From NCBI GenBank assembly GCA_000002435.2, contig CM018792.1: DNA of 64,000 nt; one strand, written 5' to 3'. Below are positions 54,832 to 64,000 of this stretch, piece after piece. Position 1 is the stretch's first letter. Every line of letters starts with the position of its first letter. The position numbers and the translations under genes were made by a program. The stretch is from Giardia intestinalis (lineage: Eukaryota). The notes beneath the pieces were generated by a model. That model had not been told where the DNA came from, did not search any database, and saw nothing but the letters and a program-made list of their open reading frames with translations.

Positions 54832-56735
54832 TCACGCCTTCCCCCTGCACAGGAACCACCAGCAGAGGAAGCCCACGAGGCCCCCCACGACGACGACCAC
54901 AGCGACGGAGATCCCCGCGATGGCCCCCGTGGAGAGCCCGCCCCTGTTGGCGCCAGAGGACACACAGGAGGCCCCAGCATCATCAGGGCTGTACCCATCG
55001 TTGCACACACAGACAGAGTTATCATCAGTGGAGTTGCTGGGACAGCCATCCACGCATGACTTCCTCCCAGGGCTCACCTTCCCACTACTACATGCCTCGC
55101 ACATGTCATCCCTGTTGGGCTTCTTACTACTGTCACAGGAGGTACAGACAGCGGGGGCCATACCACCATCAGACAGAGCTGCTGGGGCTGTACACTGGGA
55201 GCAGCCCTCTACCCCCACATATGCCTTAGCAGTATTACCAGTGCCTGTCAGTGTGCCTAGGGGTTACTACAAGCCAACACAGACTGATCAGTGTTGGATG
55301 CACCAGGCACTACGAAGTACCTATTGTTGGCTGCTTCTGTGCAGATCCCAGTATTACCTGCTGTCTTGCACATGAAGCTACCAGGAGCCTTCTGAGTGCT
55401 ATAACAGCCACCCATGTATAGGAAGTAGTTGTTGGTGCACTGTGTACATACACCATTAGCACAAGTATTCCCAGCCTTTTGAGCCTCACTAGCACAGAGA
55501 CCATCTATAGGAGCTTGTGAACTATCTCCACAATAGGAACAGTAGTGCTTTGTGGTGCCCTGATCATCTATTACGATGGCATCACAAGAGCCAGCTGTCC
55601 CCCCACAAGCCGTGGGGTCCTCGCAGGTCTTCTCTGTGCATGTATAGTTGTCTGAGGTTCCAGCGGGCTTCCTGTTAGGCTTGCACTTTGTGCACTTGAG
55701 AGGTCCTGTAGACTCCTTTGTGCACTCGGCACACCCATCGATGCCCCCCTGTGCATTATCACAAGCAACGCACTCACCAGTAGGACCATTGCCTTTCATG
55801 AAGAACCCAGGCTTGCATGTATCACACTTATCATTGCCAGTTTGAGTGCAGGTGGCACAGTTAGCACCTGGACAAGCGGTGCATGTAACCGTACCACTAC
55901 CACTACTGTAGTATCCATCGAGGCACTCCGAGCAGGTCGGCGGTGTCGCCGAGTCCTTGGTACACTTCTTACACCCGGCAATGCCCTGGTAATTTGGATC
56001 GGCTCCAGCTGAAACGGTACTGCATAAAACACATGTTTTGTCCTCCTTCATAAATAGGGCCTCGTCAGCGCCTTTACATCCAGCGTAGTCTTTTGTCACG
56101 CACGTCGAGGTCCCATCAAGGGCCGTCCTGGGGATCTTACTGTTATCACAAGCTGTGCACTTCGGCTTCTTGGTAGTCGAATCAACCTCACACTGGGTAC
56201 ATGCTTGATCTATCGTGTTGCAAGGAAGGCACTTCCCCGACTCCGGGTCAGCATAAGTGTTTCCAGTGCATCCATTATTATTCACGCATGACTTGTCAGT
56301 CTTCAGGTACTTCCCCTCTGGGCACGATGTACAATGATTCTGACCACTTCCATCGCAGGTCAGACAGGACGGATCACACTGCTTGCATTCGTTATTCTCT
56401 TTATAGTACCCTGCTTGGCACTCAGTGCACGTGGCAGGTCCTGGACTATTAGTTGGTTCCGTGCACTTGAGGCAGTTAGCCACCCCCGTATATCCATCTG
56501 CTCCCTTGGTATCCCAGCAGAGGATGCACTCCCTTCCCTTCTCTGATGGTGTAGCAGGGTTCTTGAACAGGCCGTTAGCTGTATTACACTCAGTGCACAC
56601 TCCATTACTGGCTGCTGTGCATATCTCACTGCCAGGGTGTGCATCCTTGTTGTAGCACCCGCCCATGAAGAGGAGTCTCATACTATCACTATCACCCCCA
56701 CACCACATAGCACTATCACTATCACTGTACAGCAT
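54832..56735 (-). pseudogene. VSP array cassette A (the 3'-most unit): a signal-peptide-less VSP body plus TM-CRGKA tail, broken by a 1-nt homopolymer frameshift
   Basis: Two ORF pieces, 55257..56735 (MLYSDSDSAMWCGGDSDSMRLLFMGGCY......VLACSNP*) and 54832..55218 (...GFLCWWFLCRGKA), are co-linear with the intact paralogue 60565..62358. The break is ctaGGGGttac at ~55257-55262 (four G) versus ctaGGGGGttac (five G) in cassettes D and E. Confidence 0.8.
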
Positions 56736-56748
56736 TCACTACCTAAGT
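56734..56748 (-). terminator. Extended VSP poly(A) signal ACTTAGGTAGTGAAT containing the stop codon of cassette B and overlapping the ATG of cassette A. The same arrangement recurs at 58630-58644 and 60551-60565. At 62420-62436 the first nucleotide is G (GACTTAGG...) because that cassette ends TGA-preceded-by-G context, but the CTTAGGTAGTGAAT core is kept. A variant ACTCGGGTAGTGAAT closes the array at 54818-54832.
   Basis: Minus-strand reading: ..AGG GGG AAG GCG TGA CTT AGG TAG TGA ATG CTG TAC.. The A of TGA starts the 15-mer ACTTAGGTAGTGAAT. Its last two nt plus G form the next ATG. The spacer between stop and next ATG is exactly 12 nt and contains two further in-frame stops. Confidence 0.65.
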
Positions 56749-60564: not shown

Positions 60565-62435
60565 TCACGCCTTCCCCCTGCACAGGAACCACCAGCAGAG
60601 GAAGCCCACGAGGCCCCCCACGACAGCGACCACGGCGACGGCAATGCCCGCGATGGCCCCCGTGCGGAGGCCGCTCCTATTACTGCCAGAGGACACACAG
60701 GAGGCCCCAGCATCATCAGGGCTGTACCCATCGTTGCACACACAGACAGAGTTATCATCAGTGGAGTTGCTGGGACAGCCATCCACGCATGACTTCCTCC
60801 CAGGGCTCACCTTCCCACTACTACATGCCTCGCACATGTCATCCCTGTTGGGCTTCTTACTACTGTCACAGGAGGTACAGACAGCGGGGGCCATACCACC
60901 ATCAGACAGAGCTGCTGGGGCTGTACACTGGGAGCAGCCCTCTACCCCCACATATGCCTTAGCAGTATTACCAGTGCCTGTCAGTGTGCCTAGGGGGTTA
61001 CTACAAGCCAACACAGACTGATCAGTGTTGGATGCACCAGGCACTACGAAGTACCTATTGTTGGCTGCTTCTGTGCAGATCCCAGTATTACCTGCTGTCT
61101 TGCACATGAAGCTACCAGGAGCCTTCTGAGTGCTATAACAGCCACCCATGTATAGGAAGTAGTTGTTGGTGCACTGTGTACATACACCATTAGCACAAGT
61201 ATTCCCAGCCTTTTGAGCCTCACTAGCACAGAGACCATCTATAGGAGCTTGTGAACTATCTCCACAATAGGAACAGTAGTGCTTTGTGGTGCCCTGATCA
61301 TCTATTACGATGGCATCACAAGAGCCAGCTGTCCCCCCACAAGCCGTGGGGTCCTCGCAGGTCTTCTCTGTGCATGTATAGTTGTCTGAGGTTCCAGCGG
61401 GCTTCCTGTTAGGCTTGCACTTTGTGCACTTGAGAGGTCCTGTAGACTCCTTTGTGCACTCGGCACACCCATCGATGCCCCCCTGTGCATTATCACAAGC
61501 AACGCACTCACCAGTAGGACCATTGCCTTTCATGAAGAACCCAGGCTTGCATGTATCACACTTATCATTGCCAGTTTGAGTGCAGGTGGCACAGTTAGCA
61601 CCTGGACAAGCGGTGCATGTAACCGTACCACTACCACTACTGTAGTATCCATCGAGGCACTCCGAGCAGGTCGGCGGTGTCGCCGAGTCCTTGGTACACT
61701 TCTTACACCCGGCAATGCCCTGGTCATTTGGATCGGCTCCAGCTGAAACGGTACTGCATAAAACACATGTTTTGTCCTCCTTCATAAATAGGGCCTCGTC
61801 AGCGCCTTTACATCCAGCGTAGTCTTTTGTCACGCACGTCGAGGTCCCATCAAGGGCCGTCCTGGGGATCTTACTGTTATCACAAGCTGTGCACTTCGGC
61901 TTCTTGGTAGTCGAATCAACCTCACACTGGGTACATGCTTGATCTATCGTGTTGCAAGGAAGGCACTTCCCCGACTCCGGGTCAGCATAAGTGTTTCCAG
62001 TGCATCCATTATTATTCACGCATGCATTATCCTTCAGGAACGTATTTCCCTTACAAGAGGTACACTGGGTCGCCGACGTCTCACAGGTCAGGCAAGAGTC
62101 GTTGCACTTCTCACATGCCCCGTTACTATTTAGAAAGTATCCCTCTGTGCAGGTATCACATGTAGCTGCTCCTGCATTCTGTGGTGCCGTACATGTGGCG
62201 CAGTTCTCCACTCCCTTTGTCGCGCCATCTCCCACCGTGTCCCAGCACAGGATGCACTCCCTTCCCTTCTCTGGTGTTGCAGCCGGGTTCTGGAATATGT
62301 ACTGGTTATCTACCTTACAAGCAGTGCACACTCCACTACTGACCTTTGTGCATATCACACTCCACTATCACCCTATCACCCTCTATCACCCACTATCACC
62401 CATTATCACACATTGTACAGCATTCACTACCTAAG
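60565..62435 (-). pseudogene. VSP array cassette D: 597-aa open frame ending in CRGKA, with a divergent 5' third and no ATG start or signal peptide
   Basis: The open frame begins at a GTG (62358) just after a stop. The conserved cassette ATG (62419-62421) is in another frame and hits a stop after 5 codons (MLYNV*). The 5' ~120 aa (ICTKVSSGVCTACKVDNQYIFQNPAATPEKGRECILCWDTVGDGATKG...) differ from cassettes A-C. The rest matches A and E nearly exactly. Confidence 0.7.
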
Positions 62436-64000
62436 TCACGCCTTCCCTCTACACACGAACCACCAGCAGAGGAACCCTATGAGACCCCCCACGACGACGA
62501 CCACAGCGACGGAGATCCCCGCGATGGCCCCCGTGGAGAGCCCGCCCCTGTTGGCGCCAGAGGACACACACTTACCACCCTCTAGACTGTATCCATCAAC
62601 ACACTCCCCACATATATTATCCATCACACAGCTCTTGCAGTTGGTGTCAGAGCATGTCACACACCCAGTGCCATCCTTGTTGGGCACCTTACTATTGTCA
62701 CAGGAGGTACACACAGCAGCAGTCATGCCAGCTGTTGTTAGAGCTGCTGGGGCTGTACACTGGGAGCAGCCCTCTACCCCCACATATGCCTTAGCAGTAT
62801 TACCAGTGCCTGTCAGTGTGCCAAGGGGGTTACTACAAGCCAACACAGACTGATCAGTGTTGGATGCACCAGGCACTACGAAGTACCTATTGTTGGCTGC
62901 TTCTGTGCAGATCCCAGTATTACCTGCTGTCTTGCACATGAAGCTACCAGGAGCCTTCTGAGTGCTATAACAGCCACCCATGTATAGGAAGTAGTTGTTG
63001 GTGCACTGTGTACATACACCATTAGCACAAGTATTCCCAGCCTTTTGAGCCTCACTAGCACAGAGACCATCTATAGGAGCTTGTGAACTATCTCCACAAT
63101 AGGAACAGTAGTGCTTTGTGGTGCCCTGATCATCTATTACGATGGCATCACAAGAGCCAGCTGTCCCCCCACAAGCCGTGGGGTCCTCGCAGGTCTTCTC
63201 TGTGCATGTATAGTTGTCTGAGGTTCCAGCGGGCTTCCTGTTAGGCTTGCACTTTGTGCACTTGAGAGGTCCTGTAGACTCCTTTGTGCACTCGGCACAC
63301 CCATCGATGCCCCCCTGTGCATTATCACAAGCAACGCACTCACCAGTAGGACCATTGCCTTTCATGAAGAACCCAGGCTTGCATGTATCACACTTATCAT
63401 TGCCAGTTTGAGTGCAGGTGGCACAGTTAGCACCTGGACAAGCGGTGCATGTAACCGTACCACTACCACTACTGTAGTATCCATCGAGGCACTCCGAGCA
63501 GGTCGGCGGTGTCGCCGAGTCCTTGGTACACTTCTTACACCCGGCAATGCCCTGGTAATTTGGATCGGCTCCAGCTGAAACGGTACTGCATAAAACACAT
63601 GTTTTGTCCTCCTTCATAAATAGGGCCTCGTCAGCGCCTTTACATCCAGCGTAGTCTTTTGTCACGCACGTCGAGGTCCCATCAAGGGCCGTCCTGGGGA
63701 TCTTACTGTTATCACAAGCTGTGCACTTCGGCTTCTTGGTAGTCGAATCAACCTCACACTGGGTACATGCTTGATCTATCGTGTTGCAAGGAAGGCACTT
63801 CCCCGACTCCGGGTCAGCATAAGTGTTTCCAGTGCATCCATTATTATTCACGCATGCATTATCCTTCAGGAACGTATTTCCCTTACAAGAGGTACACTGG
63901 GTCGCCGACGTCTCACAGGTCAGGCAAGAGTCGTTGCACTTCTCACATGCCCCGTTACTATTTAGAAAGTATCCCTCTGTGCAGGTATCACATGTAGCTG
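62436..64000 (-). pseudogene. VSP array cassette E (5'-partial, runs off the right window edge), with a distinct tail variant (..GKCVSSGANRGGLSTGAIAGISVAVVVVVGGLIGFLCWWFVCRGKA)
   Basis: Same body as cassettes A and D across 62700-64000. The tail module upstream of the TM helix is private (AALTTAGMTAAVCTSCDNSKVPNKDGTGCVTCSDTNCKSCVMDNICGECVDGYSLEGGKCV). The frame is still open at nt 64000. Confidence 0.7.

Follow-up and report, generated by a model that had tools for sequence, protein, structure and literature searches.

Block-wise mosaic structure of a pseudo-VSP linear array in Giardia intestinalis WB, very probably produced by recombination among paralogous VSPs

Introduction

Variant-specific surface proteins (VSPs) serve as the antigens that Giardia varies to persist in the gut. 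More than half of the vsp genes of isolate WB lie in linear arrays (Adam et al. 2010, BMC Genomics 11:424; PMC2996952). Intergenic regions in these arrays average 60 bp, being tiny or replaced by overlaps, and the downstream members are without the initiator (Inr) PyAATGTT, a start-codon motif found in 72% of the non-array vsp genes. The first array member often has a normal 5' end and an upstream non-coding region. The same study reported array members that are 100% identical over long stretches and evidence of vsp recombination from Geneconv, and offered the hypothesis that such units are discarded genes or serve as cassettes for recombination. Here we describe a locus of this kind in a stretch of 64,000 nucleotides (the window) of contig CM018792.1, part of a 2.76-Mb chromosome in the PacBio chromosome-scale reference of Giardia intestinalis WB. 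Five VSP units of about 1.9 kb each stand head-to-tail on the minus strand at 54832-64000. It is very probable that the region is one end of a pseudo-VSP linear array of WB (assemblage AI), and that it is a patchwork resulting from recombination among paralogous VSPs.

The organism and the kind of locus are those of Adam et al. 2010, in which there is no block-by-block map of the present array. In the same WB assembly 208 pseudo-VSPs have been counted, and pseudo-VSPs sit in arrays (Xu et al. 2020, Sci Data; PMC7000408); a reclassification of pseudo-VSPs (psiVSP or pVSP) is given in bioRxiv 10.1101/2022.03.07.483299. Both works catalogue genes and are without an analysis of mosaicism inside individual arrays. 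Tandem psiVSP arrays adjacent to telomeres are also described from G. muris (Xu et al. 2020, Microb Genom; PMC7641422). They lack signal peptides and are untranscribed, and their phylogeny was taken to reflect exchange with intact VSPs by recombination or segmental gene conversion. Those arrays belong to another species, carry a GCRGK tail and lie near telomeres; the WB array adjoins housekeeping genes. In a 2025 population study, VSPs were over-represented among gene-conversion tracts (PMC12669663). Arrayed, promoter-less, 5'-truncated mosaic copies are also reminiscent of the VSG pseudogene arrays and mosaic VSGs of T. brucei, and of vls in Borrelia, msp2 in Anaplasma and pilS in Neisseria. 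What sets these systems apart is a defined expression site, with conversion during infection demonstrated to be unidirectional; switching in Giardia is instead described as epigenetic or post-transcriptional.

Results

Five truncated units in one array

The units are labelled A to E in plus-strand order, as in the initial annotation. Unit A (54832-56747, minus strand, as are all five) is a pseudo-VSP adjoining an acyltransferase gene (KAE8304521.1, 53416-54576, minus strand), which flanks the array and anchors the locus and its synteny with isolates DH and P15. Units B (56748-58643), C (58644-60564) and D (60565-62435) follow, and unit E (62436-64000) is cut by the end of the window. The units match PF03302 (Giardia VSP, Pfam) with E-values of 1e-34 to 1e-39, and their translations form a cysteine-rich ectodomain with CXXC and GGCY motifs. 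All five end in ...GGL(V/I)GFLCWWF(L/V)CRGKA followed by TGA, i.e. in a transmembrane helix and the CRGKA tail. Unit B contains an unbroken open reading frame (ORF) of 627 codons at 56748-58631 (PF03302, E = 2.9e-39), and the open frame of unit D is 597 codons long. Unit C corresponds to XP_001703902.1, a protein model of the 2007 WB annotation.

Giardia poly(A) signals have the form AGTPuAAPy and lie a few bases past the stop codon. The sequence AGTGAAT, a signal of this form, begins 6 nt past the stop codon of each unit (54818-54824 on the minus strand after unit A; the other copies start at 56740, 58636, 60557 and 62428). From stop codon to next ATG the distance is 12 nt, and the ATG opening each downstream ORF lies inside the preceding AGTGAAT (AGTGA-ATG).

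What the units do not have is a VSP 5' end. Their ORFs open with MLYSDSDSAMWCGGDSDS... in A, B and C and with MICTKVSS... in D, which are non-hydrophobic and do not resemble a signal peptide; unit B likewise has none. The first GGCY motif stands at residue 24, compared with about residue 94 in full-length relatives, and alignments to two full-length VSPs described below (P0121 and the VSP of isolate DH) start at about residue 75-80. Unit D is truncated at a deeper point, where the ...LLFMGGCY... segment is missing. The VSP initiator PyAATGTT does not occur on the array strand between 54500 and 64000.

Between AGTGAAT and the first VSP-like codons lies a short repeat of the GTGATAGT type. At the junction of unit D (62362-62409, minus strand) it consists of five copies of a 10-bp GGGTGATAGT-like repeat, which bears out the repeat-built junction of the initial annotation of this stretch, and related GTGATAGTGATAGT junctions are found in A, B and C (56695-56725, 58591-58621 and 60512-60542, minus strand). 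The repeat may mark a common origin of the WB array units, or it may be a preferred joining or recombination sequence. Its translation reads MLYSDSDS...GGDSDS, and the same MLYSDSDS... opening starts pseudo-VSP models at other WB loci (P0003, P0008; XP_001706653.1, XP_001707667.1). Array units of assemblage B begin at a different point (VNDPAGVSIDSLCRP...).

Because they are without an N-terminal signal peptide, the units are pseudo-VSPs as defined in PMC7000408. Five adjacent units on one strand, gaps of 12 nt and downstream members without Inr are the properties of a linear array, and arrayed, promoter-less, partial copies of an antigen gene are those of silent cassettes. Judged by these signals, the units would most likely be silent as independent genes.

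A mosaic of shared segments

We aligned the five units with MAFFT (1997 columns) and tabulated their differences per 50-column window. Blocks without a single difference alternate with blocks in which 40-60% of the columns differ, and the partner with which a unit is identical changes along its length. In the junction and the first 130 columns A, B and C are identical and D is different. In the 5' variable block B equals C, D equals E, and A stands alone. Columns 464-599 (136 nt) are identical in all five units, with partner switches on both sides; the block lies on the minus strand at 56155-56290 in A and at 58054-58189, 59975-60110, 61889-62024 and 63721-63856 in the others. In the body, identical A, D and E are set against nearly identical B and C. 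Columns 1560-1657 are the same in A, B and D, and columns 1712-1877 in A, B, C and D, with a private sequence in E. In the transmembrane region (columns 1878-1947) A and E are set against B, C and D, and in the last 50 columns A, B, C and D are again identical.

Read unit by unit, A carries a 5' variable block of its own, the body common to A, D and E, the tail module of A to D and the A/E type of transmembrane patch. Unit C has the 5' half and body of the B type, a 3' body segment of its own, an extra 54-nt CXXC module and the tail of the B/C/D type. The 5' third of D is common with E and is followed by the A/D/E body and the B/C/D-type tail, and E has the 5' part of D, the A/D/E body, and an extracellular tail module and C-terminal end of its own.

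The longest exact matches are 1031 nt (E/A), 876 nt (crossing a unit boundary), 733 nt (E/D) and 731 nt (D/A). Much of the initial annotation holds against this alignment: the common body of A, D and E stands, the tails are indeed of two types, with ANRGGLSTGAIAGISVAVVVVV for A and E and with SNRSGL(S/R)TGAIAGIAVAVVAVV for the other three units, and the extracellular tail module specific to E is real. The 5' third of D had been called private, which is wrong, as D is identical to E over the 443 nt visible (64000-63558 = 62168-61726). The 5' halves of B and C are of one type as claimed, but the stated identity of more than 1 kb is too long. The exact match runs for 590 nt from the unit start, or 876 nt if the preceding tail and junction are counted, and then meets a 224-nt stretch of C that is riddled with deletions.

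This 876-nt exact repeat ignores the unit structure. One copy (58054-58929, minus strand) covers the tail of C, the junction and the head of B, and the second (59975-60850) the tail of D, the junction and the head of C. The lag is constant at 1921 nt, and the tracts shared by E and D have a lag of 1832. A boundary-crossing repeat at a lag of 1921 points to tandem duplication or unequal crossover. Other shared tracts are short. The transmembrane patch (54882-54951 in A, 62486-62555 in E, minus strand), at which A equals E at 13-14 sites, measures 60-86 nt, and to either side of it A is otherwise identical to B, C and D. Units C and E, otherwise the most divergent of the five, share a patch of 16-35 nt at columns 1613-1628, and B has a patch like A, D and E at columns 1157-1163. 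Short patches with two breakpoints and the same partner on either side suggest conversion tracts.

Permuting the polymorphic sites in a Sawyer-type test never gave a matching run as long as the longest one observed (0 of 5000 permutations in each of 16 pair comparisons), and switches between match and mismatch numbered 3-73 where 65-181 were expected. The pairwise homoplasy index (PHI) with unit E included gave 0 of 2000. Synonymous divergence (dS, Nei-Gojobori) between B and D is 0.90 in the 5' variable block (dN/dS 0.52) and 1.19 in the body (dN/dS 0.24), and falls to 0 in their shared tail of 108 codons; across the two divergent blocks 49 of 51 cysteine columns are kept. Since dS is about 1, dN/dS is 0.24-0.52 and the cysteines are conserved, this comparison shows the divergent segment types to be seemingly old, with the marks of having evolved as working VSP sequence and not as decaying pseudogenes. 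Uniform divergence between units, named beforehand as the outcome that would speak against a mosaic, is excluded by dS values that range within pairs from 0 to about 0.9-1.2. Together with the block-wise identity and the permutations, these values support the initial proposal of segmental gene conversion or unequal crossover.

Could tandem duplications and unequal crossovers with varied end points suffice, without any non-reciprocal conversion? The identity tracts that cross unit boundaries at constant lags (1921, and 1832 for E/D) are what such a process leaves, and a single crossover point would account for most of the partner switches. The A/E, C/E and B patches, however, have two close breakpoints and would need two crossovers each, and sharing with unlinked loci (next section) is impossible by unequal crossover inside the array. 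We consider crossover without conversion unlikely. Conversion and crossover both look to have left marks, but they cannot be told apart event by event.

The extra 54-nt CXXC module (GSGCFACAIEGCSHCNRD; 58930-58983, minus strand) is present among the five units in C alone and is bounded by an 11-nt direct repeat, CAACAGGGATG. It had been described as an insertion in C. That C alone of the array units has it is correct, but the DH orthologue and another WB VSP, P0009, have the module as well, and so the segment is more likely ancestral, with a deletion in A, B and D.

Taken together, each unit is a VSP gene that has lost about its first 75-80 codons, including the signal peptide, together with the initiator. 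It keeps the CXXC-rich ectodomain, transmembrane helix, CRGKA tail, stop codon and poly(A) signal, and a short GTGATAGT-repeat junction leads to the next unit. The patchwork very probably arose when paralogous VSP sequences underwent homologous recombination, in three types of event: recent tandem duplication or unequal crossover, giving kilobase-scale identical tracts that ignore unit boundaries; short-tract gene conversion, giving patches of 20-90 nt with two breakpoints; and repeat-bounded deletion of the 54-nt module.

Segment sharing beyond the array and in other isolates

Segments of the array are also found in complete genes. One of these, on the same chromosome, is KAE8304460.1 (P0121, 689 aa), a full VSP that includes its signal peptide. 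This protein is identical to B/C over 167 consecutive residues (216-382) and then identical to A/D/E over 194 residues (375-568). The switch from B/C to A/D/E lies inside a conserved CKPGFFMK motif, and none of the five array units has this breakpoint. Proteins flanking the array match WB KAE8304501 through KAE8304521 exactly, with accession numbers that increase along the plus strand. By accession order, P0121 would lie about 41 protein genes before the start of the window and about 150 kb from the array, on its far side. The possibility that P0121 is the head gene of the array was rejected on the same ground, as the rising KAE accessions place it away from the array. Neither the unit B ORF nor P0121 gave a match when its exact product was looked up in the contig index.

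P0009, a VSP of the 1.97-Mb chromosome, has stretches of 37 and 51 residues that are identical to different units, and other VSP models reach matches of 30 out of 30 in sliding windows. The array thus belongs to a pool of VSP segments that are exchangeable across the genome. The initial annotation had placed the exchange within the array; exchange between units stands, but this scope is too narrow, as the segments also occur at loci outside it.

Directly upstream of the acyltransferase gene, isolates DH (assemblage AII) and P15 (assemblage E) each have one full-length VSP, signal peptide included; both assemblies are older ones of the short-read era, in which an array could have been collapsed. 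We compared the DH VSP with the WB units in 60-nt windows. It is 96% identical to D/E at nt 597-655 and 92% identical to B/C at nt 1229-1283, 91% identical to the A/E transmembrane type and about 90% identical to the tail module of A to D. The comparison with a second isolate that had been proposed as a check finds one VSP at the syntenic site, and this VSP is in turn a mosaic when set against the WB units. Over the 136-nt block common to all five WB units the DH VSP is only 43-58% identical, which argues that the identity of this block reflects homogenisation in WB and not a general constraint on VSPs. From these matches the segment types appear to be older than the present arrangement of the array, and later exchange is possible. 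The tail configuration of unit A may be ancestral, because it resembles DH throughout; in that case the transmembrane type of B, C and D, and not that of A and E, would have been imported.

Several features of the DH locus were observed alongside. About 3 kb upstream of the syntenic VSP (L007 7401-10376) are without called genes. In the annotated 848-aa 'partial VSP' of DH, the true start (MFQLIPLF...) is preceded by a spurious GC-rich N-terminal extension of 125 residues. Further upstream, DH and P15 do not have the same genes, which puts the locus at a synteny break.

An array of 5'-truncated, promoter-less cassettes could be an active archive, copied piecewise and in a programmed manner into expression-competent VSPs so that new antigens arise during infection, comparable to the VSG mosaics of T. 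brucei or to vls in Borrelia. Adam et al. 2010 (PMC2996952) put this idea forward, and Xu et al. 2020 (PMC7641422) did so for G. muris. The cassettes keep long frames (B 627, D 597 and, in the 2007 model, C 645 codons), dN/dS is below 1 in the divergent blocks of B and D, and two segment types of the array are joined in a complete VSP about 150 kb away, at a breakpoint that is absent from the five units. Against this, VSP switching is presented in the literature (e.g. PMC2996952) as an epigenetic or post-transcriptional process that involves no DNA rearrangement. The P0121 chimera could equally have been a donor to the array, or be old, and there is no known expression site. We think a programmed archive of this kind quite doubtful. 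The direction of transfer and a role as antigen reservoir are things that we only infer.

Suspect stretches of the reference

Compared with B, the deletion-ridden stretch of unit C (59751-59974, 224 nt, minus strand) lacks 29 bases, lost in about 20 events, and has 3 substitutions and no insertion; it is flanked on both sides by perfect B/C identity. XP_001703902.1 (645 aa) represents unit C with its frame intact and is equal to B across the stretch. According to the paper on the WB PacBio reference assembly, there are homopolymer frameshifts, the sequence was corrected solely in places to which short reads mapped, and gaps were filled with PBJelly. Because there are only deletions, the flanks are identical and the 2007 model is intact, the stretch is probably a consensus error (unpolished or gap-filled) in AACB03, and for the same reasons we rejected natural pseudogene decay as the cause of the broken frame. 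The error turns an open unit of 645 codons into a seemingly frame-broken pseudogene. In unit A, a C-run at 55260-55263 (minus strand) has four C where D and E have five. This 1-nt deletion (at about 55261) breaks the frame 128 codons before the CRGKA end and may be a PacBio homopolymer error. Some of the unit features first described as private are probably sequencing errors of this sort.

The 2007 models give an independent view of the array. The first 379 aa of unit A equal XP_001705183.1, and the compositions of units A and C are independently confirmed by these Sanger-era proteins. XP_001705182.1 consists of the A/D/E body and an E-like tail, with 7 residues different from E; it would imply at least one further related unit, or else a chimeric old assembly at that point. 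A search with unit D found no exact product of unit D or E in any annotation.

These errors raise the question of whether the mosaic as a whole is an artefact, i.e. a chimeric consensus or a set of collapsed copies from the assembly of tandem repeats with PacBio and PBJelly. The pure-deletion stretch in C and the frameshift in A are in its favour, as are the homopolymer errors and gap filling reported by the assembly paper itself. Short-read assemblies break at the array edge: the Logan contigs with the acyltransferase all stop about 30 nt inside the tail of unit A. XP_001705183.1 and XP_001705182.1, which together make an A head and an E-like tail, mean that the two assemblies disagree somewhere. 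Yet the Sanger-era annotation repeats the composition of two units (the A 5' block with the A/D/E body, and C entire), the read N50 of 12.7 kb spans several 1.9-kb units, each with distinctive segments, and similar segment sharing is seen in a full-length VSP elsewhere and in the DH orthologue. An artefact is very unlikely.

Independent divergence after duplication, with the identical blocks kept by strong purifying selection, is next to impossible: conserved VSP parts do exist (the transmembrane region and the CRGKA tail) and cysteine positions are kept throughout, but stretches of up to 1031 nt with zero synonymous differences stand beside blocks of dS about 1 in the same pair, the set of identical blocks varies from pair to pair, the all-five block is poorly conserved in DH and so not generally constrained, and the permutations never reached the observed runs.

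Other genes in the window

A second VSP lies at 12-1973 on the plus strand, opposite to the array (PF03302, E = 2e-128; end ...WWFICRGKA). It belongs to a different, GC-richer lineage (58% GC), and its ORF opens with MYKGGCY, its 5' end being missing or cut by the window. At 32187-33731 (plus strand) a VSP-like ORF of 514 aa has a plausible signal peptide (MSINVFILLVGLALHLA...) and CXXC/GGCY motifs and ends without a transmembrane helix or CRGKA tail, as a 3'-truncated pseudo-VSP or a secreted cysteine-rich protein would. The 4 kb on its 3' side (about 33.7-37.7 kb) hold short ORFs only, at 52-56% GC. Between the VSP-bearing ends of the window sit a 1093-aa cysteine-rich protein with EGF repeats, 'neurogenic locus notch-like' (KAE8304513.1, 26043-29324, plus strand), and a cathepsin B (KAE8304515.1, 30276-31172, plus strand), and the 64 kb thus contain four loci of cysteine-rich surface or secreted type. 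The ORF at 46560-53171 (plus strand) encodes 2203 aa and corresponds to the 2007 model XP_001704593.1. In the current annotation (KAE8304520.1) and in most short-read assemblies the product has 2132 aa, the choice of start codon differing between annotations. The longer ORF overlaps a TPR gene on the opposite strand by 64 nt.

Discussion

The map of the five units, the permutations and the change of dS within pairs make recombination among paralogous VSPs the very probable origin of this array. Several points weigh against that reading or its details. Taken alone, units A to D show no incompatibility in the four-gamete, PHI and Hudson-Kaplan tests, and 182 of 182 informative sites support the split AD|BC; for this reason tests of tree incongruence are nearly blind on these four units. 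The incongruent splits AE|BCD and ABD|CE, set against ABC|DE and ADE|BC, appear only when E is included, with 7-14 sites each, and ABC|DE and ADE|BC are themselves compatible with one tree. The evidence for the mosaic is mainly block-wise rate heterogeneity and not tree incongruence. Sharing with P0121 and P0009 was seen at the protein level only, the silence of the units is deduced solely from missing sequence signals, and the array head lies beyond position 64000, outside the analysed sequence. Finally, the array assembly contains at least one error-ridden patch, and single-base features are unreliable because of it.

Recombination among array VSPs is already published for this genome, and our result is a correct re-discovery of it. 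Only three things are new here: the array is mapped at block level, it is linked to one full-length VSP that is chimeric, and an erroneous stretch of the reference is flagged. To the picture of Adam et al. 2010 they add the 876-nt repeat that crosses unit boundaries, the 136-nt block common to all five units and the chimeric VSP. For users of the reference we advise caution: the frame breaks in C and probably A should not be taken as biology.

The question at stake is whether the roughly 200 silent pseudo-VSPs of WB are junk or a reservoir for new variants. The locus is a clean, anchored example, with five units beside a single-copy gene, one full-length VSP in the syntenic position of DH and P15 and, elsewhere on its own chromosome, a chimeric full-length relative, and it is suited to long-read testing of the reservoir idea. 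That the array serves as a working donor archive, its open, cysteine-conserving segments being copied piecewise into complete VSPs such as KAE8304460.1, is in our view improbable on present evidence. If it were true, mosaic VSPs would form on the timescale of infection or of clonal lineages, and the antigen repertoire of Giardia would grow by this route in addition to epigenetic switching.

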